From positions 1 to 28,095 of the forward strand of contig JBCCQY010000118.1 of assembly GCA_039208735.1 (NCBI GenBank): a stretch of DNA of 28,095 bases, given 5' to 3'. Below, piece after piece: positions 4,177 through 22,608 of the stretch. The stretch's first letter is position 1. Each line of letters opens with the position of its first letter. Source of the stretch: Myxococcota bacterium (GTDB lineage: Bacteria; Myxococcota_A; UBA796; GCA-2862545). Both the position numbers and the translations under genes were made by a program. The notes under the pieces are model-generated. The model worked only from the letters and a program-made list of their open reading frames with translations, was not told the origin of the DNA and searched no databases.

Positions 4177-5382
4177 ATGGCCCAATTGGACCTGGATCCG
4201 GTCGTCGATGATCTGCTTGCTCCCACGATCGACCGCCTACGGGCGATCCTCGGAGCTTCTCCTGGTCCCGACCTGCGGGTCACGGTGGGCGAACGGCCCG
4301 ACTATTTCGTGATCGACGGCACTTCCGTCGTGCTGTCAACGTCGTTGTTGGGGCCGGACCTCCACCATCCTCGCGATGCGGCTTCCCTCGTGCCCGTGGA
4401 TCGGTGGCGACGCGCCGCTGCCTCGGTGCTCGAAGCGGCCACCCTGGTTCGACTTGGCGAAACGTCGCAGGTCACCTGGCAACCCTTGGGGTTCGCCATT
4501 TGGCAGGCCCACCGTTGGTACCCAGAGCTCCAGGTCGCGCTTGCGGACCTCGCTCGTGCGCGCCAGAACGGAGGATTGAGCCACGATCCGCGCGCAGGGT
4601 ACGCCGTGTTTCGCGCGATCGAGTGTTCTGGCTCGGATCCGACGGATCGGTTCGAGGCCTGGCGACAAGGCACCCCCGTTCCTGTGGAGGACTTCCTCGC
4701 GTGGGGTCGTTGGGTTCTGGCTGCAGATGGTGCCCAGGCCGAGCTGCCGGTTCCCGTCCCCCGCCCTCCTGAGGTCGACATTCCGTGCACCCTCCAACCG
4801 TTTTCGTGGCAGCGGCTCTCGGTCCCTGCCAACATGCGGGGAGGCCAGATCGAAGTGGCCGGGCCGGGGCTTGTAGACGACCCGTGGGGCGTTTCAGACC
4901 AGCCATTGACCGCCCTCGCTTGCGCCACCGAAGCTGAGGTTCGCTTGACCGCCGCCCCTGGCGGTCCGGTAGGGCGTTGGCAACTCCGTAGTGCCGATGG
5001 GTTTGGACAGGTGATGGGGGCCCGCGGGTTCACGCTTACCTTCGAACGCAATGGCACGATCACCTTTGAACTCGCCGATGCGTTCGTCGGTCCCATCGCC
5101 GCCCTCGAGATGGCCGAACGAATGGGCACGAGCGGGTTGGTGCGGGGCCGATGGCAGGTGGCGGGCCCGTTTTTGGTGAGCTTGACGGGCCTCGATACCT
5201 CGGCACTCACCATGCACGGCCACCAAGACCCCTTTGTGCTGCCCGCGCAGGGATTGGGGCTCGCCCAGTCAATTCAGGCCATGACCGCGAGCCCCTGGCG
5301 ATGGCAAATCGCCGAGGATCTGCTCTCGCTCAAGGGAAGCCTGCAGGGAGCCTCCGTCGAGGTGCGACTCGCTCGGGCCTGA
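4177..5382 (+). CDS. Hypothetical protein (401 aa)
   Basis: Long ORF of ordinary protein composition, 14 nt upstream of the next gene. No family recognised with confidence. Confidence 0.75.
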   Translation: MAQLDLDPVVDDLLAPTIDRLRAILGASPGPDLRVTVGERPDYFVIDGTSVVLSTSLLGPDLHHPRDAASLVPVDRWRRAAASVLEAATLVRLGETSQVTWQPLGFAIWQAHRWYPELQVALADLARARQNGGLSHDPRAGYAVFRAIECSGSDPTDRFEAWRQGTPVPVEDFLAWGRWVLAADGAQAELPVPVPRPPEVDIPCTLQPFSWQRLSVPANMRGGQIEVAGPGLVDDPWGVSDQPLTALACATEAEVRLTAAPGGPVGRWQLRSADGFGQVMGARGFTLTFERNGTITFELADAFVGPIAALEMAERMGTSGLVRGRWQVAGPFLVSLTGLDTSALTMHGHQDPFVLPAQGLGLAQSIQAMTASPWRWQIAEDLLSLKGSLQGASVEVRLARA

Positions 5383-5396
5383 GCGAAACTGCAGGT

Positions 5397-6143
5397 GTGA
5401 GCACCCTGCACGACTGGATCCGATTCTTCGACGACCCTCAAGGGGCGCCTCCAACGCTCACCGAGCGTGATCCCCTAGGCACCCTACTCGTGCATCTGGC
5501 CTATGCGGATGGCCTGGTTCAAGGTGATGAACTCGCCTTTTTCGAGAGATTGCTGCCGCGGGACTCCGACGCCGCCCGGTGGGTGAGCAGCCAGGCCACT
5601 CGGCCTGTCGACCTCGATGCATTGGCCCCGCTGATGGCGACCCCCGACGACCGCCGAGCCCTCCTCGCAGTTGCGGCACGCGTCGTGGGCCTCGATGGAG
5701 CCATTGCGACCGAAGAGGTGATCGCCCTGCACCGCATCGCGGACCACTTTGGCTTCGATCGCAGTGCCATCCGAGTCGCGTTGGACGAGGTCATCGGGGC
5801 CGGAGGCGCGATCGATGCTTCGGCGGTCGAGCATGCGGTAAACACCATGGTTTGGCGCCATTTGGTGGTGCGTAAGGCAACCGAACCCGACGCGTTGGTC
5901 GTGCTGGGTCGGCCCGAACATGACGCGGCGGACGTGATCGTGCGCACGGACGGGCTTTGGGCGCGCTTCGATGAGGGGCCCGCGACCATCCCCTTCGCGG
6001 ATATCGTGGCCTACACGCGACTCCCCGTACGAGGACGAGCGTTCCATCTCCGTACCGACGGAAGCGACCACAGCTTGGTCCATCCCTCGTTCCGCGATCT
6101 GGGGTGCTTGCTCGACAGGATCTACGGTCGTTCGGCGGCCTAA
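5397..6143 (+). CDS. TerB-like domain protein with an extra C-terminal domain (about 248 aa)
   Basis: Two TerB-type half motifs, LAYADGLVQGDE and VVGLDGAIATEE..ALHRIADHFG. Start inferred at GTG 5397. Confidence 0.75.
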   Translation: MSTLHDWIRFFDDPQGAPPTLTERDPLGTLLVHLAYADGLVQGDELAFFERLLPRDSDAARWVSSQATRPVDLDALAPLMATPDDRRALLAVAARVVGLDGAIATEEVIALHRIADHFGFDRSAIRVALDEVIGAGGAIDASAVEHAVNTMVWRHLVVRKATEPDALVVLGRPEHDAADVIVRTDGLWARFDEGPATIPFADIVAYTRLPVRGRAFHLRTDGSDHSLVHPSFRDLGCLLDRIYGRSAA

Positions 6144-9851: not shown

Positions 9852-10403
9852 GTGACGACACCGACGCTGCGACTTGCTCACATCGTCGAGAAAACCCAAT
9901 CCGAAGGGCCGGGCCTGCGGACCGCCATTTGGGTTCAGGGTTGTACCATCCGTTGTCCCGGTTGTTGCAACCCCGAGCTGTTCACGAAGAAGGGGGGCCG
10001 ACAGACCTCACTCGACGAGGTCATCGCGGCGTGCGATGGCGTCGAAGGGCTCACGGTGGTCGGTGGCGAACCCTTCGAACAAACCGAGGGGCTCGCCGCA
10101 CTGATGCAAGCCCTACCCTCGTCGCTTTCGCGACTCGTCTTCTCGGGCTACCGCCGTGAGGAACTTGAAGCGCGTGGGTGCCTGCACACCGACACCATTC
10201 TCGCCAACATCGATGTGTTGGTCGACGGCCAATACGACTCATCAAAGCCCGATGATTCGCGTCGCTACATCGGTTCCACAAACCAACGTGTCCATTTTCT
10301 GACCGACCGCTATGGTCCGGACGATTTTCGGGGCGAAGCGACCATGGAGCTGCGCTACAAGGACGGCAAGCTCGTTGTCGTGGGGTGGCCAGCGTGGCGA
10401 TAA
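9852..10403 (+). CDS. Small NrdG/activase-like radical SAM protein (about 183 aa)
   Basis: EGPGLRTAIWVQGCTIRCPGCCN (CxxxCxxC), GLTVVGGEPFEQ, FSGY, IDVLVDGQY, GSTNQR. GTG 9852 follows SD GGAGG (9842-9846). Confidence 0.9.
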   Translation: MTTPTLRLAHIVEKTQSEGPGLRTAIWVQGCTIRCPGCCNPELFTKKGGRQTSLDEVIAACDGVEGLTVVGGEPFEQTEGLAALMQALPSSLSRLVFSGYRREELEARGCLHTDTILANIDVLVDGQYDSSKPDDSRRYIGSTNQRVHFLTDRYGPDDFRGEATMELRYKDGKLVVVGWPAWR

Positions 10404-11350
10404 CCGTCTACGAACGCGACGTACTAACGCTCGCTATCGCGCTGGTTGAAGACACCGACCCCCGCCTGCACGTGCCTGCACTCGTCCGTGAGGGGCACAA
10501 GACCGGGCTATCCTCGGAGTGTCTTGCCGCGGTCGAACGGGTGTTTTCGCGCGGCTTGGCCCGTCGCCTGGCCCGTGGAGGCGCCACGCGGCTGTGGGAA
10601 CAGGCTCCTCCACTCCGCTTTGGCTCGGCGAGCCTCGACCTGTTGCATTGGCTCCACACCACCCCCATCTCCCATACAAAGACCCCGGCGTTGCGCCTGC
10701 GCTCGAAGCCGACCGTGGTCGAAACGCTGCTGTTTGCGCGAGCGGTCGACCTCATCGAGGCCGCGGGGGTTCGTCAGTTGCCCGAGCCCTTCTTCGAAGT
10801 GCCGTGGCTTTGGATGTTTCGAGGCGAGCAGCTTGCGGTGCATCAAGAACCGTCGGTGTCGCTCGTGGAGCGTCTCGATAGCGAAGACTGGCTGATCATT
10901 GCTTGCCACCGCGAACTTCGCGGCATTTGGGCACGTTGGTCGCGTCGGGCACGCGCCGAATCCGTTCCCAACACCGTTCGCCATGGCACCGTGCAGGCGG
11001 GATTGGCGGAAGCCATCGTGAACAGCAGTGCCGATAAGCCAGAGCGAGTCGCTTTTCTCATCGATCTGGTGACCTTGCTTGCCGACCTGCCCCACGAAGT
11101 GTGGGAGGTGAACCGCGGACGCGCTACCTTGTCCATGTGGCAACGCGCCCGCCAAGCTCGGGTCGCCATGCTTCGTGTGATGACCGAACAGGTCGGTCGC
11201 TGGCGCGATGTTTGGCGTGCGACGGGCTTTCTTGATGACGCCTATGAACAGACGCAACTGTGGCTGCGTCGATACGAGCCCGGGTTAAGGGCTCTGAACT
11301 TGCTTCGACACCCCGTCGAACGCGCTCGCCAACTGCCGGAGGTCGCATGA
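10385..11350 (+). CDS. Uncharacterised helical protein of the FtsH/MoxR cluster (321 aa)
   Basis: Overlaps the radical SAM stop and the next start (ATGA). Start is GTG 10385 or 10394. Cluster membership inferred from position. Confidence 0.8.
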   Translation: MASVAITVYERDVLTLAIALVEDTDPRLHVPALVREGHKTGLSSECLAAVERVFSRGLARRLARGGATRLWEQAPPLRFGSASLDLLHWLHTTPISHTKTPALRLRSKPTVVETLLFARAVDLIEAAGVRQLPEPFFEVPWLWMFRGEQLAVHQEPSVSLVERLDSEDWLIIACHRELRGIWARWSRRARAESVPNTVRHGTVQAGLAEAIVNSSADKPERVAFLIDLVTLLADLPHEVWEVNRGRATLSMWQRARQARVAMLRVMTEQVGRWRDVWRATGFLDDAYEQTQLWLRRYEPGLRALNLLRHPVERARQLPEVA

Positions 11351-11907
11351 GCCGTGCCTACGAAATTCGAGTGGCCCGGTCGCTCACGTCCCACAAGCGG
11401 ATCGAAGACGGCATCGAAGCCCGGCTGGAGCTGTTGCCCATTTTGGACCGGGAACGGACCGGTTCGTTGCTTGCCGAGCAATTGAAGGAGCGCGGCTGGA
11501 CCATCGAAGAGGGTGTGGCCAAGCGTGAAGTCGACGGGGTGAAGGTCGAAGTCGACACGACCACGGGTACCATCACACTGCGCACCGACAAAGACCTCAC
11601 CATCACGGTCGAAGGGGAGCGCCGGAAGCGCAGCTGGGATGAACGTGCGACTCAGGACCAGAAGGTGCTGGAGCAAGAGCTGGACCAGGCGCTCGAACGT
11701 TCGGTTGAAGAGAAGACCCAAAAGGAGCTCGACCAGCTTTCCGAGCAGCTCGAACGCGTGCTTACCGAAATCAAGCCGGAACTCGACCAGGCTACCGATG
11801 CGGTCAACCGGACCGCCCTCCGCGAGAAGGCCGCACAGCTTGGCCAAATCATGGACATCGCGGAAGACGGTGAGTCCGGAGAAATGACCATTCGCGTAAA
11901 GGTGTGA
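11347..11907 (+). CDS. Coiled-coil-containing protein of the FtsH/MoxR cluster (186 aa)
   Basis: ATG 11347 with SD GGAGG (MSRAYEIRVARSL...GEMTIRVKV); central E/Q/K-rich helix. From memory it resembles an FtsH ternary system accessory (X5-type) domain; not searched. Confidence 0.85.
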   Translation: MSRAYEIRVARSLTSHKRIEDGIEARLELLPILDRERTGSLLAEQLKERGWTIEEGVAKREVDGVKVEVDTTTGTITLRTDKDLTITVEGERRKRSWDERATQDQKVLEQELDQALERSVEEKTQKELDQLSEQLERVLTEIKPELDQATDAVNRTALREKAAQLGQIMDIAEDGESGEMTIRVKV

Positions 11908-11910
11908 TTC

Positions 11911-14007
11911 GTGAGTGAGATGACCGCGGCCGAGGCGGACCTTCCGAGCTCGCTCGACGAGTTCCAGGCAGCCGCGGCGGCCTACCCGACCGAGCTGGCG
12001 GCAGCGCGAGATGCGCTTGTCTCCGGACTTCCTGTACTCGTCGAGTGCGACAAGCAGCTGGTTCCGTTCTTCTATCGGAACCTTCGTGACCGTTTGCGGG
12101 CCGACGAAATCGCCATGCTCTACCTCGATGGGCGTCCTCAACCCGACGACCCCCCGGGTTTGGGCTTGATGGGCCGCATCCTCTTCCACCTCGGCAACGC
12201 GGTGCGAGGGGCGGTGGACCGTCGAGTCATCGTGTTGCCCCACCTCGACCTCGTGATGGGCGGGGGCGCCGGGGGCGGCATCTCGAGCGAAGCACGCGAG
12301 GTCATCGCGTTGCTCTATGAAAACCCAAGCATCGTGTGGCTTGGCTTCAAAGACCTGTCGCTCGACTTGCCCACCGTTGCGATGAACCTGTTTCCTCGTC
12401 GACTGTCGATCCTGGGCGTACCCCGAGACCGGTTGGGTCAGCTCGTGACCCAAGCCGAGGCACGGAAGTTCGGGCGCGGCCTCAACACCTTTCAGATGTA
12501 CAAATTCGTGTCGGGCGTCAACGCGGTGCAGCTGCGGCGCGTGCTGTCGGCCATCGATGGTGAGGACTACCCGACCGACCCGCGACCCGCGTGGGATCAG
12601 CTCCGGCAATCCACGCTGACGTCCGACATCACGTTGCCCGACCTCGATCTGCACAACGACATCGGCGGGTACGAGAACGTCAAGAAACAGCTGCAAAGCG
12701 AGATCATCGATCTCGTCAATGCACACCATGATGCCACGAGCGCGGAACAGGCGCGGCGTCTCGAATCGCTTGTGCCTCGGGGCATCATCTTCTGGGGGCC
12801 CCCGGGCACCGGTAAGACGATGTTCGCCAAGGCAATGGCCCGGTCCCTCGGTGCGGCCGTCATCGTCGTCAGCGGGCCTGAACTCAAGAGCAAGTGGGTC
12901 GGCGAATCCGAGTCGAACCTACGACGTGTGTTTGTGCAGGCGCGTCAGAGTGCGCCAGCCGTCATCATCTTCGACGAGATGGACTCGTTCGCATCGGCAC
13001 GCGGCACCTATGAGGGCTCGGGGGTCGAGCACTCGATGGTCAACACGCTGCTCACCGAACTCGATGGCTTCCGCTCCAACGAGATGGTCTTTGTCGTGGG
13101 CACGACGAACTTCGTCGAGTCCCTCGACCCCGCGCTCATGCGACCGGGCCGCTTTGAGTTCAAGCTGCACATCCCGTTTCCGAACAACGATGATCGACGC
13201 GAGATCTTGAAGATCTACGATCAGAAGTTCAGCCTGGGGCTGAATGAAGAAACGCTCGAATATGCGGTGAAGCGTACGGCCGACCCCGTAGAGGGCAGTT
13301 TCCAGCCCTATTCCGGTGACCACATTAATGCGGCGTGCCGGGCCCTGGCTCGACAGCGCATGCGCAAGGGCAACACCGGCGACACGACGGTGGCCGACGT
13401 AGAGGCGGCCCTCACCGCACACGTCGAGCGCCCCAAACTCACGCCCCACGAAGAACGCGTCGTGGCCATTCACGAGTGCGGTCATGCGGTGACGGCGCTC
13501 TACTGCGACAACGTGCCCACGGTCCAGCGCATTACCATCCTGGGCGACCTCGGGGGCACGCTGGGTCACATGCGGCTCGAGGACCCGGTGAACCGCGAGG
13601 TCACGACCCGCAACCAGCTCCTCGATCGCTTGGTTGTCGCCTTTGGTGGCCGAGCCGCTGAACAGGTCATTCTCGACGACATTTCCACCGGTGCGGCGGG
13701 TGATGTCGAAAATGCCACTCGCATCGCGCGGTATTGCGTTGAAATCGCCGGTCTGTCGGACCTCGGGCTCACCTCGTTCGCGGTCGGCAAGCCGTCCGAC
13801 CAGACCAAAGCGATGGTCGACGAGGCCGTGCGTCAGCTTCTGCAAGAGGCCGAAGAACGTGCCGTGCGAATCATCACCGATCATCGAGCCGAAGTCGAGA
13901 CGCTCGCCAGCGAGTTGCTGCGCCTAAAGACGCTCGACGCGACGGCTCTCGCCCAATTCACCTCGGCGCGCACCCCCGCGACCGAGGCCGGAGGTTCCCT
14001 TGGCTGA
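11911..14007 (+). CDS. Soluble FtsH-like AAA+ ATPase / M41 metallopeptidase (698 aa)
   Basis: Walker A GPPGTGKT, pore loop KWVG, Walker B IIFDEMD, SRH TTN..SLDPALMRPGRFE, HECGH (HExxH) and ISTGAAGD (third Zn ligand region). No transmembrane helix in the N-terminal 240 aa. Confidence 0.92.
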   Translation: MSEMTAAEADLPSSLDEFQAAAAAYPTELAAARDALVSGLPVLVECDKQLVPFFYRNLRDRLRADEIAMLYLDGRPQPDDPPGLGLMGRILFHLGNAVRGAVDRRVIVLPHLDLVMGGGAGGGISSEAREVIALLYENPSIVWLGFKDLSLDLPTVAMNLFPRRLSILGVPRDRLGQLVTQAEARKFGRGLNTFQMYKFVSGVNAVQLRRVLSAIDGEDYPTDPRPAWDQLRQSTLTSDITLPDLDLHNDIGGYENVKKQLQSEIIDLVNAHHDATSAEQARRLESLVPRGIIFWGPPGTGKTMFAKAMARSLGAAVIVVSGPELKSKWVGESESNLRRVFVQARQSAPAVIIFDEMDSFASARGTYEGSGVEHSMVNTLLTELDGFRSNEMVFVVGTTNFVESLDPALMRPGRFEFKLHIPFPNNDDRREILKIYDQKFSLGLNEETLEYAVKRTADPVEGSFQPYSGDHINAACRALARQRMRKGNTGDTTVADVEAALTAHVERPKLTPHEERVVAIHECGHAVTALYCDNVPTVQRITILGDLGGTLGHMRLEDPVNREVTTRNQLLDRLVVAFGGRAAEQVILDDISTGAAGDVENATRIARYCVEIAGLSDLGLTSFAVGKPSDQTKAMVDEAVRQLLQEAEERAVRIITDHRAEVETLASELLRLKTLDATALAQFTSARTPATEAGGSLG

Positions 14008-14269
14008 AGTCACGCTCCGCCTGCGGACGGATCCCCAAACCGGGAAGAAGTCGGTCGTGATCCAGTACTCGAGCGACACCGACGCCCTGCCAATGGAGCA
14101 CGAAGCCGACCACAAGAGAATTGTCGATCAGCTGATCGAAGCCGGAGCGCTTTCGGAAGACGACCGTGACGCCATCGTCATCGAGCGGCTGCCCGAGGAG
14201 TCTGAACCCCAGGCCGAGACCGGCACCGAAGGGGAGTCCGAGCGCCAGGCCCTGGACGAGTCGAGCTAA
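14000..14269 (+). CDS. Small acidic protein of the FtsH/MoxR cluster (89 aa)
   Basis: TTG start with SD GGAGG (13990-13994), 8-nt overlap with the protease stop, ends 1 nt before the next ATG. From memory it resembles the X3-type domain. Confidence 0.8.
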   Translation: MAEVTLRLRTDPQTGKKSVVIQYSSDTDALPMEHEADHKRIVDQLIEAGALSEDDRDAIVIERLPEESEPQAETGTEGESERQALDESS

Positions 14270-14270
14270 C

Positions 14271-17200
14271 ATGACCCTCCGGTTCTCCGACGACGACGCG
14301 ATTCGCGCCGCGTTGGGTGTCGTGCCGCCCGACGTTCAGGCGCGCGGCGGGCACTTCTGGCGCGAAGACGATGCGATTGTGGTGCAGGCGGACCTCCCCG
14401 CGGAGGTCTGTAAAGCGCTCGTTGCAGCTGGGATTTCCGAGGTCGATCCTCGCGACCCCAACGACGGCGAGGCCTTTCTACACTGGTTGGCCCTCGTGCC
14501 CCCGGTTGCCGAGCCAGATCCTGATCTCCGTGAAGTGTTGTTCCTGTTGCCACCTGGTGAAGGCTGGATCGGGCTTGCGTCCGAGCTTGTTCGGCTGGGA
14601 TGTGACGACCAGGAACTGTTGCGGCTTGATCAAGGAGACTGGCTGATCAAGGCGCGGAATCCGCCATATTACACCGTGGCCAAAGCTGCAGACGGCGCGT
14701 TTGTGGCCTTCACCCGAGATGGTCCCGATCTTTGGGTGGAAATGGGCTTCCACCACGAGATGGCGGAGCGGGTCTCTGCGCCAGACGGCACGATCCTGCT
14801 TGCCCGCCGGTCGGGTTGGCGAGCGATCGAGGCGACGGAGTGGACACCGCTCGACACTCGACTTGAGTTGTTGGCCCAACCGGCCACGACCTACACGGCC
14901 GAGCCGCCAGACGAACCCCTGGTCGTCAAGCTGCGCCTCATTCCTACGCCCAAAGCGCACCGGCCGTCGTTGTGGGTGGTTCCACCACCCGTGGCGTCAC
15001 GCCTCGAAAGCTTGCTCCGCACGCTTCCTGAGGCCACCGTCGAGCAGCTTGAGCTGGCCCGGTTCATCGGTGAGGCCGAGGACCATGGAGCCTTGCTTCG
15101 AGCCCGGCCCGGCACCCCTCCGCCCATCCTCGAAGGGCTCGACGCGTTCGTACCTCACCCGCATCTTGCCTCGCTCTTTGTGCCTTGGGGCATGGCCATC
15201 GACCCCCCGTTGCAGGCGCGCACCATTCAGCGGTTGCTCGATCCAGGTTCCGGTCGCGTGGCTTGGGTGACCCCGCTCGACCAAGGGATGAGTACGCACT
15301 TCGTGGAAGAGGGTGCATTTCAGCGTCTTGCGGACCACGTGCTGTACGTCGCAGAGACCGATGAGGGAGCCCTCGATGCCTGGATGGGCAACGCGGCCTT
15401 CGAATGGGAGCCTCTGAACCTTGAAGTCGTAGGCGCCACCGAGCGTACGCCTCGGTCGCGACGCTTTACCACCGAAAGCGACCGCGGACCCGTGGTGGCG
15501 TCGACTGGGCCCGCCACCCCACGCCCTCGGACCACACCGCGCACTGAATCTGCACCCGCAACGCCGGCCCCTCGAACGTTCGAAGTGCAATTGAGCGAGC
15601 CCGGCGAGATCGAGCAGGCACTGCAGGACCTTCAGGCCGAATGGACGGAAAACCCCGATCGCACGGATCTGTGGGCACCGATGGCGATGCTTCATCACCG
15701 GCTCGATCAGCCACGTGAAGCTGCGCTGTGCTGGACACGGGCGCTGTGGGACGCCGATGCCGAGAGTCGATCCCAGCTCATCCAACAGTGGGCCGGCGAA
15801 CTGCCGCAAGTAGACGAGCTGCCCGCTGAGCCCGATCCGACCCAGCTCACCGCCGTCGTGGCCCACCTGCTGGCTGAAAACCTCGAGTCCGACCCTCCCG
15901 AGATCCAGCGTTGGCTCGATGAGCACGATCCCGTGCTCGATGTGCGGAGCCGATGGCTCGCCCGCCGTCGGGTCGCGCAGCTTGCAGGCGGGGACGAACT
16001 GGCGCTCGCCCGTGCGCGCGATGACATCCTGGCGTCGATCCGCTCGGGCCTCATGCCGGTACGTGACGTGCCCGCGTTCATGCGCACCTCGACCACGCCC
16101 GAGGACCGGCGTCGGCTTGCGGAGAGCTTGGCCGGGATCGAGCAAGGGTTGCTGCCCCTCACGCCCAAGACCGCTCCCCAAGCGTGCACGCGCGCCTATA
16201 CGCGTCTGACACTCGCCTGGGCCAACGCAAGGCTTGGGATTGCGGAACCTGCGGTCCAGGCGCTCGGCCAAGCCGAAGAAGATTTGCCCGCGGAAGACGC
16301 GATTCACATGGTGTTGCTCGGTTTGTACCGGGCGGGCATCGATGAGGCGCTCCGAGGCTTGCCGGAGGAAACGCCGCCACCAGCGGCGGTGCAACAGCAG
16401 TTGTCGGCGCTGGCGAAGTTCGACCGGTACAAGATCGACCGGCTCCGCAACGTATCGATGGGGGTCTTGCGGGAACCCCAAGCTCAGAACCCATTCGAAG
16501 CCTTCGTCAGCGAAGATCGGCAAGAACTCGCCGCATTGCCTCCCGATGCGCTCCTGCCCGCGTTGAACGAGCGCCTCGAGAACTTGTCCGAAGATCGGCC
16601 CGACCGGGACCTCAAGGAGATCTTGCAGGGCATCGTCGCGCTGGACGAGTCGGACGGTGCGCGACTGCTGGACCGGGTTCTTGACCAGGCACAGGCATTG
16701 CCTGGCTTGGTAGCGGTCCCCGTGCTGGTCGAAGTGGTTGGGGTGGCCGCAGCGCTACGACGTCCGTCGGCGGGTGAAGCGACGCTGTCGCGCCTGGCCG
16801 AAGGCCTCGCCCAAGCCATGGATGAAGATCCGACCGACATCGCGCAGCCGGCCATCCAGTCCTTGGCTCGCCATCTGGCTCGATGTGGACTCATGACCCA
16901 GGGCCGGGTCTTGTTTGCGGGTCTTCAGGAGCGCTGTCCTGCCGAAGAGCAGGTGCTCCGCCTGCGGCTCGCGGGGGCACTTGCCCATGTCGGCGGTACG
17001 GTCACGGACGAGGCGGAGGCTGGTTTGCGGCTGCTCGAGCAGCCCGAATTGCCCCTGCCCGAACGACTGCGGTTGTTGTCGGCTGTGGCCGACCTCGCTG
17101 CGCCCATGCCGCTCACCAACGCCATTGAGTTGTGGGCATCCATCGTGCCCCAAGCGCGCCGCGTCGAAGACGCGTATTCCACGAATACGCACTTTGCCCT

Positions 17201-17339
17201 TTCCTTTCTCCATGTCGTCGAAATTCTTGCGGGGGCCCATGTGCACCCCGACCGCTTGCTCTCGGCTGAAGGACGTTCGCGCCTCGATGCTGACGAGCAC
17301 CGCGTCCGGCTGCGCATCCACCAGGAGGGACACCTCTGA
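14271..17339 (+). CDS. Large uncharacterised protein of the FtsH/MoxR cluster (about 1022 aa)
   Basis: ATG 14271. Alpha/beta N-terminal region, Pro/Thr/Arg linker (about 15430-15580), long helical-repeat C-terminal region. From memory it resembles the X7-type component. Confidence 0.85.
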   Translation: MTLRFSDDDAIRAALGVVPPDVQARGGHFWREDDAIVVQADLPAEVCKALVAAGISEVDPRDPNDGEAFLHWLALVPPVAEPDPDLREVLFLLPPGEGWIGLASELVRLGCDDQELLRLDQGDWLIKARNPPYYTVAKAADGAFVAFTRDGPDLWVEMGFHHEMAERVSAPDGTILLARRSGWRAIEATEWTPLDTRLELLAQPATTYTAEPPDEPLVVKLRLIPTPKAHRPSLWVVPPPVASRLESLLRTLPEATVEQLELARFIGEAEDHGALLRARPGTPPPILEGLDAFVPHPHLASLFVPWGMAIDPPLQARTIQRLLDPGSGRVAWVTPLDQGMSTHFVEEGAFQRLADHVLYVAETDEGALDAWMGNAAFEWEPLNLEVVGATERTPRSRRFTTESDRGPVVASTGPATPRPRTTPRTESAPATPAPRTFEVQLSEPGEIEQALQDLQAEWTENPDRTDLWAPMAMLHHRLDQPREAALCWTRALWDADAESRSQLIQQWAGELPQVDELPAEPDPTQLTAVVAHLLAENLESDPPEIQRWLDEHDPVLDVRSRWLARRRVAQLAGGDELALARARDDILASIRSGLMPVRDVPAFMRTSTTPEDRRRLAESLAGIEQGLLPLTPKTAPQACTRAYTRLTLAWANARLGIAEPAVQALGQAEEDLPAEDAIHMVLLGLYRAGIDEALRGLPEETPPPAAVQQQLSALAKFDRYKIDRLRNVSMGVLREPQAQNPFEAFVSEDRQELAALPPDALLPALNERLENLSEDRPDRDLKEILQGIVALDESDGARLLDRVLDQAQALPGLVAVPVLVEVVGVAAALRRPSAGEATLSRLAEGLAQAMDEDPTDIAQPAIQSLARHLARCGLMTQGRVLFAGLQERCPAEEQVLRLRLAGALAHVGGTVTDEAEAGLRLLEQPELPLPERLRLLSAVADLAAPMPLTNAIELWASIVPQARRVEDAYSTNTHFALSFLHVVEILAGAHVHPDRLLSAEGRSRLDADEHRVRLRIHQEGHL

Positions 17340-18364
17340 GCACCACGACCCACGAAACCGTCGCCGCGATGGACTTCGAGACCCTGGCGAGCGAAGCGCA
17401 GGCCATTCGGGAGCGAATCAATCGCTTCCGCACCTCGCTTTCGCAGTACTTCGTCGGCAAGAAGGACATCGTCGACCTGATGACCCTCTGCGCGGTCGCC
17501 CAAGAGCCGCTCTTGCTCGTAGGGCCTCCGGGAACGGCGAAGTCGGCGCTCGTCCTAAAGTTCAAGGATGCGCTCGACATCGACGACCAGCGGTACTTCG
17601 AGTACATGCTCACCCGGTTCACCGAGCCGTCCGAGGTCATGGGACCCATCGACATCGCGCGACTGCGCGGAGGGGAGTACATCCGGCGGGTCCAGGGGAA
17701 GTTGCCCACCGCCGAACTCGTCTTCCTCGATGAGATTTTCAAGTCGAACTCAGCCATCCTGAACTCGTTGCTCACCGTCATCAACGAAAAGAAGTTCTAC
17801 CAGGACGGACGGGCAGTACCCGTCAGCCTGCGCATTCTCTTTGCGGCGACCAACGACATTCCTGAGCAAGCCGAACTTGCTGCGCTGAAAGACCGCTTCT
17901 GCTTGAAGGTGGCATGCCGCTCCGTGCAGCAGGATCACTTCATGGAGCTCGTGGATTCGGGCCTCGAAGACGCGACGAACCGCGACCTCGGGAGGCGACC
18001 GTGGTCCGAGGGTCACGCAGACCTGGGGGACTTCTACAAGGCCCATCGCTACCTGTCGCTTCAGATGTCGAAGCGGGACGTCGACCCCGACGGCAAGGTG
18101 GTTCGCGATCGGCATCTGTTCTTCCCCGACGAGCTGCTCGTTGAACTGCGGCGCCTGGTGAAGACGCTTGTGCTCGAAGATGACGTCTTCGTCAGTGACC
18201 GGAAGGTGGTCAAGCTCTACCGCCTGCTTCGGACCCGGGCCTGGCTGCACCGCGGCGGTCGCGTCGAGCGAGTAGATCTGGTGCTGCTGTCGTACCTGGG
18301 CGAGACTCAGGCGGAGATGGACCTCCTCGAAGAGAAGGTCCCGAAGTTGCTGGGCATCCAGTGA
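17336..18364 (+). CDS. RavA/MoxR-family AAA+ ATPase
   Basis: LLLVGPPGTAKS, YFEYMLTRFTEPSEVMGP, VFLDEIFKSNSAILNSLLTVINE, AATN, ALKDRF, SDRK. Start is CTG 17336 (good SD, overlaps the upstream stop) or ATG 17369. Confidence 0.92.
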   Translation: MSTTTHETVAAMDFETLASEAQAIRERINRFRTSLSQYFVGKKDIVDLMTLCAVAQEPLLLVGPPGTAKSALVLKFKDALDIDDQRYFEYMLTRFTEPSEVMGPIDIARLRGGEYIRRVQGKLPTAELVFLDEIFKSNSAILNSLLTVINEKKFYQDGRAVPVSLRILFAATNDIPEQAELAALKDRFCLKVACRSVQQDHFMELVDSGLEDATNRDLGRRPWSEGHADLGDFYKAHRYLSLQMSKRDVDPDGKVVRDRHLFFPDELLVELRRLVKTLVLEDDVFVSDRKVVKLYRLLRTRAWLHRGGRVERVDLVLLSYLGETQAEMDLLEEKVPKLLGIQ

Positions 18365-19674
18365 ACGAGGCCGAGCTTGCGGCCGGGCTCTGCCTGGCCC
18401 GCATCGACCCACCGTCTTCCGATCTCGTCACTCGCGCCAAACCGGGCATCGCAGCGGCGTTGGAGCGGTCGTTTCGCTTGCCCCCGCTCGGGTTGGTGGC
18501 CGACATCGCCGCGATGCTCGAAGACCCGAGCCCGACGTTGTCACGCGCGTCCATGCCCTTCATGGACCTCCGCAAGTATGACGACCGCATCGTGGGGCCG
18601 TTGCTCATGCACCGGTTGCGGACGTCATTGGCGGATGCCTATGCAGGGTTGCCCGATAGCTGGCGGGGAGCCGCGGTGGCGGCGCTTGCCGAACGCCTGT
18701 GTGATGACCTCGACCCGCAGGCCCCCTGGTGGGAAGCTGCCGGACTTCGCAAGTGGCTCGGCCAGCCCACCGACGAAGTGTGGGAGCACGGGTTGCGGGC
18801 GCTCGCCACCGAGGCTGCGCGGTCGGCGCTGGGCGACCGCCTTCAGGCGATGATCGCATCGGGCACTGCACGCTGGACCCCCGCGGACGTGCATCTGGTG
18901 CGCAACTTGCCTGCCATGGCCACACGAGCTCAACGGGTGGCGGTTCGACAGGTGCTCGAAGCCGCGGCAACGCTCGATCAGCGCTTGCCCCGGTCGGTCC
19001 GTCCTCGCGTGCGTACCGGTCAAATCGCAAGTGGGCTCGAAGAGGACGACGCCTATCCCACCGGGGGGTTCTCGGCGCTCACCAATAGCGGGAGCCCCGA
19101 GAATCTGGTGACCTCTGAACTCGTCTACATGGACGATGGCGACGGCATTGATCTGTTCGATGTTCGGTTCGCCGAGGGCGAATTGCTCTACTATACGCGC
19201 GACGAATCGATCTACACCCGAGAGCGACGCCGCATCGGGATTGGGCTCGCTGCCGACTGCATTTCGGCGCGGGTGAAGGACGTGGAGTTGCCGTTCCAGC
19301 GCCTGGTGTTGGCGCTCGGCGTGTTGCACGCGGTTGTCGAACGTGTGGTGAACTGGCTCGGTCGGGTTGAACTCGAGATTACGATCCATCCCATCGGTAG
19401 CGAACTTGCGGATGAAACCCGGCTGCTCGACTTGGTGTTGCGGACCTGGATCGACGCGGGAGTCGTCCAGATCGAACCCCTTTCCAAGGCCGAGGACTTT
19501 GGGCATCGAATCAACGAAAAAAGCCAGCGGGTGCAGACGGATGCGGTGTGGATCACCACCGATCCTGAATCCACGCCAGAGGTCGTCATCGAGCCGTTCG
19601 TGTTCGGGATTGGGGCTGCGACGGTCGACCAGTGGAGCCGCGATGCCACGGCTTTAGCCCGTCACCTCGCGTGA
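18361..19674 (+). CDS. MoxR partner with a ViaA-like pre-vWA motif and degenerate vWA domain (437 aa)
   Basis: YPTGGFSALTNSGSPENLVTSELVY...LFDVRFAEGELLYY resembles the segment preceding vWA domains in MoxR partners. GTGA overlap with the ATPase. No DxSxS motif visible. Confidence 0.7.
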   Translation: MNEAELAAGLCLARIDPPSSDLVTRAKPGIAAALERSFRLPPLGLVADIAAMLEDPSPTLSRASMPFMDLRKYDDRIVGPLLMHRLRTSLADAYAGLPDSWRGAAVAALAERLCDDLDPQAPWWEAAGLRKWLGQPTDEVWEHGLRALATEAARSALGDRLQAMIASGTARWTPADVHLVRNLPAMATRAQRVAVRQVLEAAATLDQRLPRSVRPRVRTGQIASGLEEDDAYPTGGFSALTNSGSPENLVTSELVYMDDGDGIDLFDVRFAEGELLYYTRDESIYTRERRRIGIGLAADCISARVKDVELPFQRLVLALGVLHAVVERVVNWLGRVELEITIHPIGSELADETRLLDLVLRTWIDAGVVQIEPLSKAEDFGHRINEKSQRVQTDAVWITTDPESTPEVVIEPFVFGIGAATVDQWSRDATALARHLA

Positions 19675-20771
19675 ACGCCCCTCGCCACTGGATTCTCATC
19701 GGAAATCCCGAGAACCGACGGGTTACCGGGTTTGTCGACGCGGTAGCCCGTGAAGACGCAGGCACTGTCACCGTGGTCCCTTGGACCGAGGTGGTCGCCC
19801 GCCCCGACTTCTGGACGGAACTCGACCCCTCCCCTGCGTTCGTTCGCATCGAGTCGCTGGGTGAAAACCCCGAAGTTCAGAACGCCATGCTGCGGCTCGG
19901 TGGGATGCCCGCTCGGCGACCGTTGCCCTTTGGGGCGTTCGTCCCTCCCGCGCCAAGCCATCAGGGCTTCTTGGCGCTCCTCGATCGGGTTGCCGCAGGC
20001 TTGCGCGAACGTCCGCAATGGACCCCGCTCGCGACCCCCGAGGCCATTCGGCTGGTCTTTGACAAGTCTACGTTTCACCGTCACTGTCGCGACTTGGGAG
20101 TTGCGGTCGCCGAAACGATCGAAGCGTCGTCGCGGTCCGAATTGGAAGCGGTGATGCAAGCGGAAGGGTGGGGGGCCGCCTTCGTAAAGATCCGCACTGG
20201 GTCGTCAGCGGTGGGCGTTGGCATCTATGCCTTGCGGCCCCGGCCGACGTTCACGACGACCGTCCACATGAGCGCGGCAGGATGGTTCAATTCGCTTCGA
20301 TTGAGGCGCTATACGCAGGAAGCAGACCTCGACCGCATCGTCCACGGCCTGATGTCGCACGGGGTGCACATCGAGCGTGCGATCGAAAAAGCCCGTCTCC
20401 ATGGAGCCAACTTTGATTGTCGGGTGCTGATGATCCACGGCGAGCCCAAGTTCGTGGTGGTGCGTCAGAATCGTCACCCCATCACCAATCTGCATTTGGG
20501 CGGATGGCGGGGTGATCTCCAGGCGCTGCGCGAGCAGTGCCCTCCCCTCGTGTGGGACCACGCCATGGACGATGCGCGTCGGATCGCCAAGGCATACGGC
20601 GGGCTTCACCTCGGCCTCGACATCCTGTTCACATCGGGATTTCAACGGCATGTCGTGATCGAAGCCAATGCGTTTGGCGACTTGCTGCCGCGTCTGACGC
20701 ACGAAGGCCGGGACGTCTACGCCACGGAAGTGGCGGCCGCCCCGGCCTGGTGGTCACAACAGTTGGCGTGA
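19671..20771 (+). CDS. ATP-grasp protein, STM4014-like (about 366 aa)
   Basis: GNPENRRV, RIESLGE, FDK, FVKIRTGSSAVGV, FDCRVL, PITNLHLGG.RGD, GLDILF, IEANAFGDLLP (ExN). GTG 19671 overlaps the upstream stop (GTGA). Confidence 0.85.
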   Translation: MNAPRHWILIGNPENRRVTGFVDAVAREDAGTVTVVPWTEVVARPDFWTELDPSPAFVRIESLGENPEVQNAMLRLGGMPARRPLPFGAFVPPAPSHQGFLALLDRVAAGLRERPQWTPLATPEAIRLVFDKSTFHRHCRDLGVAVAETIEASSRSELEAVMQAEGWGAAFVKIRTGSSAVGVGIYALRPRPTFTTTVHMSAAGWFNSLRLRRYTQEADLDRIVHGLMSHGVHIERAIEKARLHGANFDCRVLMIHGEPKFVVVRQNRHPITNLHLGGWRGDLQALREQCPPLVWDHAMDDARRIAKAYGGLHLGLDILFTSGFQRHVVIEANAFGDLLPRLTHEGRDVYATEVAAAPAWWSQQLA

Positions 20772-21672: not shown

Positions 21673-22608
21673 TCAGACCGAACCGTCGAGGTCAAGGAAC
21701 CCCAGATAATCTGGCTGCTCTGCGAACTCGTCAAGGGAATTCGGTTGGACGTCGTGAAGACGTTGAGCCTCGGGCGCGAGCGTTGGGGCAAGGGCTTCGA
21801 TCACGGCAAATGCGACGTCGACCTCGATCAACCTTCGCTGCACTGCATCGGCGAACAGGTCGAGCCAATGTTCGGGCGTCTCGGCAAGCCGACAATCCAC
21901 CGCAACGTCGGCCACCTTCTCGAGGGGCAACCGCCCCCGCGCATGAAGCACCAAAGCAGCTTGGAACCAGCTTGAAACGGGATGGACCTTTGAGCCCAAC
22001 CGCGCGAACCGTTTGGGTGCGGTTCCTCGATCGAGTCGGATGAAGATGTCCTCGACCGCATCGGCGCGCTCAATCCGTTCGATCGCGCGAACAGCCTTTT
22101 CGATCGCATCGGGGTAGGCGCGGCAGCGCGTGAGGAGTTCTGTCACATCCTCGGCTCCGAGTTCACCAGCCACGACCCCGGCATAGACGGCGTAGATCAG
22201 GCCGTCCTTCTCGGAGTCATCGCCAAACCACGTCTCGGTGGTGTCGACCGACAATGCCACACGATCCGCCAGCAGCGTGGGGAGTTTGTACCCGACCTGC
22301 GCCCGCAATGCGCGAAACCGACCCCGCCGCAAGTTTCGCAAGTTGTCTTTCAGCGTGAGGCGGTCGAACGTGATGCCGTCGATCGCGAGCTTTTGCTCGA
22401 TGGCCGGTCGCAGTTGTCGAGGTGAGCCAGAGAGAAAGCGGATTCGCGCTGCCTCATCCGCCGCGAGAAGGCCTCGCGCCAGGGGTGCGGCACCGGGAAC
22501 GGTGCGCTTTTGACTCGGGCGCTCGACAGCGGCCCGCAGAAGTCCACTCAACGAGTGGATTTCTGTGTCGAGGTAGGTACGATCGAGGTCCCAGCCGAAG
22601 ATATGCAC
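21673..22608 (-). CDS. HAD-superfamily App1-like phosphatase domain protein (311 aa)
   Basis: N-terminal WDLDRT (DxDxT), FLSGSP, LK and [10 protein letters not shown]. Exact start uncertain. Confidence 0.8.

Follow-up and report, generated by a model that had tools for sequence, protein, structure and literature searches.

The window analyzed here is a 28,095-nucleotide (nt) stretch of a Myxococcota bacterium genome (GenBank assembly GCA_039208735.1, contig JBCCQY010000118.1, forward strand). Between positions 9852 and 20771, it carries nine plus-strand open reading frames (ORFs); profile matches show that eight of them make up a simple-type FtsH ternary system in full, an uncharacterized gene set defined by genome comparison, and the ninth encodes a predicted ATP-grasp ligase. 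The genes are listed below with product length in amino acids (aa) and profile scores.

9852..10403, + strand: short, NrdG-like radical S-adenosylmethionine (SAM) protein, 183 aa; PF13353, 103.9 bits; CxxxCxxC at C31/C35/C38
10394..11350, + strand: fvmX6 protein, 318 aa; PF20004, 41.8 bits (cutoff, 27)
11347..11907, + strand: fvmX5 protein, 186 aa; PF20003, 139 bits; predicted TBP-like/helix-grip half-fold
11911..14007, + strand: soluble FtsH-like protein, 698 aa; PF00004, 137 bits, and PF01434, 125 bits
14000..14269, + strand: fvmX3-analog, 89 aa; PF20002, 88.5 bits
14271..17339, + strand: fvmX7 protein, 1022 aa; PF20005, 122 bits
17336..18364, + strand: bpMoxR AAA+ ATPase with a CTG start, 342 aa; PF20030, 217 bits
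18361..19674, + strand: ivWA protein, 437 aa; PF19997, 110 bits
19671..20771, + strand: STM4014-family ATP-grasp protein, 366 aa; NF038074, 307.6 bits (cutoff, 175)

From gene 1 to gene 9, the distances at the eight junctions are −10, −4, +3, −8, +1, −4, −4, and −4 nt, the sixth value applying to the CTG start of MoxR. All thus fall between −10 and +3 nt, in agreement with the initial annotation, which had stated that the nine ORFs overlap or lie at most 3 nt apart when this start is used. The CTG at 17336 is preceded by AGGAGG and overlaps the fvmX7 stop codon as CTGA, an arrangement kept in all three of the congeners checked; the alternative ATG at 17369 lacks such a ribosome-binding site and would open a 29-nt gap. 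From the gene coupling alone, we infer that the nine genes form one transcript. Promoter and terminator scans gave no signal above the shuffle level.

FtsH ternary systems were defined by Kaur, Burroughs, Iyer, and Aravind (eLife 2020; PMC7159879), whose main text distinguishes a simple subtype, with a helical N terminus on the von Willebrand factor A (vWA) protein and a stand-alone radical SAM enzyme, from a complex subtype with a beta-propeller vWA protein, a ubiquitin-like (Ubl) system, and caspase-like effectors. Eight genes of the operon exceeded Pfam cutoffs, namely, those of Fer4_12, fvmX6, fvmX5, AAA plus Peptidase_M41, fvmX3-analog, fvmX7, bpMoxR, and ivWA. Six of these models (fvmX3-analog, X5, X6, X7, bpMoxR, and ivWA) are specific to the system, which bears out the ternary-system assignment of the initial annotation and fits the description in the main text of PMC7159879. 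The same matches placed the four proteins previously set aside as unknown into the fvmX6, fvmX5, fvmX3-analog, and fvmX7 families, all over cutoff; that there are four such proteins stands, and they now carry family names. Complex-type genes (a beta-propeller–vWA fusion or Ubl, E1, E2, E3, or JAB genes) were not detected among the 22 window ORFs scanned, and no model named NEFF1 matched in the profile scan of the window ORFs. The operon leaves no room for a separate peptide gene, and fvmX1 was not found in the source genome.

The eight-gene core is a known, uncharacterized kind. Literature searches returned no experimental study of FtsH ternary systems; the passages found in PMC10910872 concern VMAP systems. 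The terms "ATP-grasp," "peptidase M41," and "WGR" are absent from the main text of PMC7159879, the figures or source data of which may show such features. A recurring link to the STM4011-15 genes, a near-invariant EHExxH cluster, and the intact protease, all described below, were found neither in the readable text of that paper nor in the literature searches.

To survey the system more widely, GTDB genomes were scanned with the FtsH N domain. The scan gave 203 relatives, and the loci counts given here cover the best 80, which mostly bear Myxococcota or Planctomycetota labels and are 50 to 78% identical in this domain. Gene order was conserved across the two phyla, the neighborhoods of which the initial annotation had proposed to compare. 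Among loci with enough flanking sequence, we found X5 in 62 of 69, X6 in 56 of 64, radical SAM in 45 of 62, X3-analog in 48 of 55, X7 in 46 of 54, MoxR in 18 of 47, and ivWA in 13 of 47. Both the 10-kb flank and a second X7 copy in 9 of the 47 loci, which pushes the last genes out of range, keep the MoxR and ivWA counts low; in five genomes that showed no ivWA next to the front genes, it was kept elsewhere (five of five). fvmX5 occurred in 7 of 41 relatives, in 19 of 251 own-phylum genomes, and in 7 of 251 genomes of a second phylum (that of G269). Cultured carriers include Limnoglobus roseus and Gemmata algarum.

The FtsH-like protein joins an AAA+ domain with GPPGTGKT and FDE motifs to an M41 zinc protease domain with HECGH at residues 521 to 525 and D598, which corresponds to the third zinc-binding residue of FtsH. 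Among complete FtsH ORFs, Walker A was conserved in 70 of 70, Walker B in 69 of 70, and HExGH in 68 of 70, both exceptions to the last being truncated; the arginine finger was conserved alongside Walker A and B, and D598 was at least 90% conserved. The AAA+ domain is predicted to be active, and the protease motif is intact. It has no transmembrane (TM) helix, its peak 19-residue hydropathy being 1.37, so the earlier description as a soluble FtsH-like protease stands. A conserved, system-specific N domain of 240 aa, devoid of a P-loop, precedes the AAA+ domain. The main text of PMC7159879 presents this domain as an inactive second AAA+ copy; profile comparison with the active AAA+ domain revealed no significant similarity, and no PDB relative of the N domain was found.

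The MoxR core matches RavA (3nbx) residues 7 to 301 with an E value of 5e-40. Its partner, ivWA, has a helical N-terminal half and a divergent vWA domain that has lost the metal ion-dependent adhesion site (MIDAS), its DxSxS motif not being conserved in a 20-row alignment. Its large helical N-terminal domain is identified indirectly: ivWA has no PF19996 match itself, but its residues 73 to 283 are 38% identical (E = 1e-19) to a protein of locus L019 that matches PF19996 with 131 bits. The mechanism of MoxR-vWA pairs is reviewed in section 8 of PMC7159879.

The radical SAM protein scored 98 bits against TIGR02491 (NrdG), below the cutoff of 126. Of 49 homologues, 47 had CxxxCxxC, and the two without it were a cut ORF and a degenerate copy in congener G002; at that locus (L013:5042-5620), the degenerate ORF without CxxxCxxC still precedes X6, and an STM4011-15 cluster is attached. 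NrdD or glycyl-radical domains were detected in none of five system-bearing genomes (two of them single-contig and the source genome 92.7% complete; controls were positive); hence, this enzyme likely acts on a different substrate. The RATGF motif of X6, which resembles the loop of glycyl-radical enzymes, was considered as a radical site and rejected: its Gly is often replaced among 74 aligned rows, and L150 and L151 have X6 but no radical SAM gene.

Among the accessory proteins, fvmX3-analog carries the motif D28-x4-E33-H34-E35-x-x-H38, with D28 conserved in 143, E33 in 151, H34 in 150, E35 in 150, and H38 in 149 of 151 aligned sequences, 150 of which are representatives clustered at 50% identity. 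By its conservation, the EHExxH cluster is likely a metal site. The ESM Atlas contained nothing usable for this protein. Pairs of fvmX5 and fvmX3-analog-like genes with no FtsH gene between them occur at G000:C2:31-893 (L020, at a contig start) and L155:9168-10078, and the X3-like proteins of these stand-alone pairs have lost the second His of HExxH. In four other proteins (P0203, P0206, P0227, and P0237), the fvmX3-analog domain is preceded by an N-terminal extension that contains repeated RRNP motifs, and lysine-rich tails are present; no viral contig matching P0206 was found.

The fvmX5 model (pLDDT, 94.5) shows two 23-residue strands and a 68-residue helix in a TBP-like half-fold with a long ribbon; against TBP chains, 74 residues aligned with a root mean square deviation (RMSD) of 1.8 and Z scores of 8.0 to 8.5. 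Only fvmX5 and fvmX2 clusters exceeded a TM score of 0.5 in the ESM Atlas, and close X5 homologues bear Myxococcota labels. fvmX7 consists of small ferredoxin-like alpha/beta domains, a Pro/Thr linker, and a long, helix-rich C-terminal half, the last read from sequence only. In the model of its residues 1 to 385 (pLDDT, 91.5), the best match was the C-terminal domain of MecA, a ClpC adaptor (Z = 6.7; RMSD, 2.6; 74 residues aligned), a weak lead; fvmX7 is likely a scaffold or adaptor. At E values of 0.001 or lower, Foldseek found no match for X5 among PDB and viral models and none for X7(1-385) in PDB, and no PDB sequence relative of fvmX6 was found. An internal repeat in the N-terminal part of X7 was rejected, with a probability of only 5%. 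Tandem fvmX7 duplicates occur in Gemmataceae-type loci (L059, L087, L102, L111, L114, L115, L117, L122, L123, and others).

By eye, FtsH, X5, and X3-analog resemble the Ycf46/DUF1257/DUF2997 set, likewise a tandem-AAA protein with two small proteins. However, hhalign probabilities for X5-DUF1257, X3-analog-DUF2997, and the N domains of FtsH and Ycf46 did not exceed 2.3%. In three of four modes, the X5-DUF1257 pair scored above all 30 shuffles, whereas the other pairs of this module did not. Homology was not significant and is unsupported. Operons of a Ycf46-like AAA gene, DUF1257, and a small-protein gene (L024 to L048) occur in 40 of 151 own-phylum genomes in a layout like FtsH-X5-X3.

Gene 9 belongs to the STM4014 family, one of the five STM4011-15 genes (NCBIfam NF038073 to NF038076 and NF006067), and is a predicted peptide ligase, an adjunct from a second unstudied gene cluster. 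The initial annotation had listed it with the other eight in one coupled cluster; gene 9 is, however, not a core gene of the ternary system. It is part of STM4011-15, a separate cluster, and congener G001 lacks it at the corresponding chromosomal site. Residues K132, K173, E235, D249, R251, N273, D317, E331, and N333 are conserved in a five-row alignment. In congener G002, ivWA is followed by STM4014, WGR-STM4015, STM4013, STM4012, and then an inserted gene and STM4011. STM4011-15 genes abut the operon in 5 of the 80 loci, downstream in L051, L079, and L121 and upstream in L100 and in L085, where all five are present, and also lie downstream in G267 and in this window. An unrelated ATP-grasp gene of the PF02222 type stands right after FtsH at L010:10793-12022 (G013) and L148:7181-8455 (G201). 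No functional paper on STM4011-15 was found; PMC3844500 and PMC2784778 mention the genes only in passing.

STM4014 also tends to occur where fvmX5 does. Among the relatives, six of the seven X5-positive genomes had STM4014, versus none of the 34 X5-negative ones, 11 of which are at least 7 Mb. The own-phylum sample of 251 genomes contained X5 in 19, STM4014 in 16, and both in 10 (Fisher P = 2e-8 without this genome, a value overstated because kin are not independent). STM4014 was present in all nine own-phylum genomes with close-type X5, defined as 130 bits or more, a split chosen after the scores had been seen. Of the 251 genomes from the second phylum, 7 had X5 and 4 had STM4014; 2 had both, one of them being the genome on which the sample was centered. 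Among the 80 system-bearing genomes, 36 had STM4014, versus 16 of 251 and 4 of 251 in the phylum samples. These counts do not add up because the genome sets overlap. The link between STM4014 and the operon is recurrent, not obligatory.

The operon is flanked by housekeeping genes: pheS/pheT, a fructose-1,6-bisphosphatase (FBPase) gene, and pepN lie upstream, the last at a gap of 61 nt, and an RNA recognition motif (RRM) gene lies downstream, convergent and 1 nt away, as does a sigma-54 activator gene on that side. Its GC content, 0.639, equals that of the genome (0.639). In G001, the eight core genes occupy the same chromosomal site between housekeeping genes, without gene 9. Upstream of the FBPase gene, positions 5151 to 6143 of the window encode a TerB-like domain protein (PF05099, 28 bits), and beside the RRM gene, an ORF at 21673 to 22608 on the minus strand weakly resembles an APP1-like phosphatase (23.5 bits, which is below cutoff). 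rtcA, encoding an RNA 3'-terminal phosphate cyclase, lies directly upstream of the radical SAM gene on the same strand in 23 of the 80 loci (for example, L087:6550-7629). No viral relatives appeared in three scans. PADLOC gave only generic IetA/TRIP13 AAA-domain matches, on FtsH (one of nine proteins), and no recurring defense neighbor was seen among gene clusters present in at least 3 of the 80 loci (nine cluster representatives scanned).

Because of the known biochemistry of MoxR-vWA pairs and FtsH, we infer that the operon likely encodes a soluble, ATP-driven machine that remodels and degrades proteins when the cell is stressed by damage or infection, and that the ATP-grasp protein is an optional predicted tagging module; we consider this reading slightly more probable than not. 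X7, X5, X6, and X3-analog would form a scaffold that holds a client, X3-analog binding metal via EHExxH. By analogy with other MoxR-vWA pairs, the MoxR ring and the MIDAS-less vWA adaptor would pry the complex apart, and the client would then pass through the AAA ring of FtsH to reach the M41 protease. The NrdG-like enzyme may introduce a radical into one of the proteins encoded by the operon, which would serve as a mark or a trigger. STM4014, together with STM4011, -12, -13, and -15 encoded elsewhere in the genome, might ligate a small tag or make a modified signal that feeds this route. In favor of a stress or damage trigger, we count rtcA before the radical SAM gene and the frequent association of STM4015 with WGR.

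Several observations weigh against the remodel-and-degrade reading. The fold matches of fvmX5 and fvmX7 are middling and indicate no function, the best one of fvmX5 (Z = 8.8) being near the level common for unrelated folds and that of X7 reaching Z = 6.7. Nearly all cases of the rtcA link come from a single planctomycete group, so that it may reflect one inherited event, and the link is not seen in the source genome, where rtcA is unlinked to the operon. In G002, the radical SAM gene is degenerate, and in G004, it does not lie upstream; therefore, the radical step would be dispensable. As for the tagging module, STM4014 is absent from G001, was not found in 44 of the 80 system-bearing genomes (many of them incomplete metagenome-assembled genomes), accompanied distant-type X5 in only 1 of 10 own-phylum genomes, and occurred without X5 in 6 of the 251; STM4011-15 genes are unlinked in G003, G013, G036, G201, G257, and G259. 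Moreover, kin are not independent in any of the counts.

One competing explanation is a dedicated conflict system against invaders (phages), in which sensing would release an effector or trigger abortive proteolysis, as Kaur et al. proposed. It overlaps the remodel-and-degrade reading and differs mainly in the trigger. The patchy spread of fvmX5 (7/41, 19/251, and 7/251 genomes) would suit such a system, as would the enrichment of ternary systems in multicellular bacteria (63 of 79, according to the main text of PMC7159879) and the rtcA and WGR-domain neighbors, which fit nucleic acid damage. However, the nine genes include no variable effector slot, the FtsH N domain is 50 to 78% identical across two phyla, the operon has genome-like GC content (0.639) and keeps its chromosomal site in G001, and PADLOC gave no specific hit, the scanned neighborhoods of the 80 loci no recurring defense gene, and the three viral scans no relative; we judge this explanation unlikely. 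Several of the tests agree equally well with a conserved role in the damage response, and the phrase "possibly defensive" in the initial annotation stays tentative. Still less probable, in our view very unlikely, is a chaperone set that assembles, or inserts metal into, one specific enzyme or structure; X3-analog would carry the metal, and FtsH would exert quality control. This explanation is modeled on RavA-ViaA, CoxD-CoxE, and NorQ-NorD, and the MoxR protein is indeed closest to RavA; it also gains from the near-invariant His/Glu/Asp cluster of X3-analog, the ferredoxin/ACT/HMA-like N domains of X7, and the retention of the gene set even when dispersed. Yet no client enzyme gene recurs near the operon in the 80 loci, rtcA excepted, and the caspase-like effectors and Ubl system of the complex subtype, as given in the main text of PMC7159879, weigh against such a role.

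The place of gene 9 can be weighed separately. STM4014 could be a hitchhiker, that is, the two modules could be unrelated, favor the same lineages, and sometimes lie side by side. This agrees with the six genomes in which STM4014 is unlinked, with its absence from G001 and its presence without X5 in 6 of 251 genomes, and with the scattering of the other four cluster genes over three contigs here. Conversely, the adjacency recurs at both operon ends, across two phyla and with varying gene order; the few genomes that have one of the two genes also have the other in four families (3/15, 2/3, 1/18, and 1/17); and none of the 11 large X5-negative genomes has STM4014. We judge a hitchhiker rather unlikely. 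A bolder extension of the remodel-and-degrade reading, which we regard as speculative and quite unlikely, would join the simple-type system and STM4011-15 into a single tag-and-destroy pathway that comprises about 13 genes and needs no ubiquitin. Damaged or foreign macromolecules would be covalently marked by an ATP-grasp ligase, radical SAM enzymes, and a WGR-LRR sensor, MoxR-ivWA would extract the marked macromolecules, and soluble FtsH would degrade them. The ATP-grasp module would then take the place that the Ubl-E1-E2-E3 cassette has in the complex subtype. The very small HExxH protein might act as a metal-dependent switch or contribute one half to a composite peptidase.

For this family, first predicted in 2020, the compact copy described here names testable residues: E356 and H521/E522/H525 of FtsH, E133 of MoxR, C31/C35/C38 of the radical SAM protein, H34/E35/H38 of X3-analog, and E331/N333 of STM4014. 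In addition, the recurring STM4011-15 link connects two gene clusters that are both unstudied, and it suggests a way in which substrates of the simple subtype could be marked in the absence of ubiquitin-like proteins.

Like membrane FtsH, the protease combines AAA+ with M41, HExxH, and a downstream Asp ligand; unlike it, the protein has no TM helices, an extra N domain, a pore loop (KWVG) of the Cdc48/PAN type, and a TIGR01241 score of 266 bits, versus a cutoff of 600. The radical SAM protein resembles the NrdG activase in size and in its GPGxR, CxxxCxxC, GGEP, DGxY, and GSxNQ motifs, whereas it scores below the NrdG cutoff and has no glycyl-radical partner in the five genomes searched. As in Escherichia coli RavA-ViaA, a RavA-like MoxR core is encoded next to a vWA partner; in contrast to that pair, MoxR is about 160 aa shorter than RavA and lacks its C-terminal region, the vWA partner has no MIDAS, and six or seven more genes are coupled. 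Gene 9 exceeds the STM4014 cutoff, and the cluster to which this family belongs adjoins ivWA in G002; however, only STM4014 lies at this locus, the other four genes being on contigs C13, C31, and C134. Taken as a whole, the operon matches the simple type in its MoxR with GxxxTAKS (here GPPGTAKS; PF20030, 217 bits), its divergent vWA with a helical N terminus and a nonconserved metal-binding DxSxS, its FtsH-type AAA+ protein, the N domain of which has no P-loop, and its stand-alone radical SAM gene without beta-propeller or Ubl genes, and it departs from the simple type as described in carrying a coupled STM4014 ATP-grasp gene.

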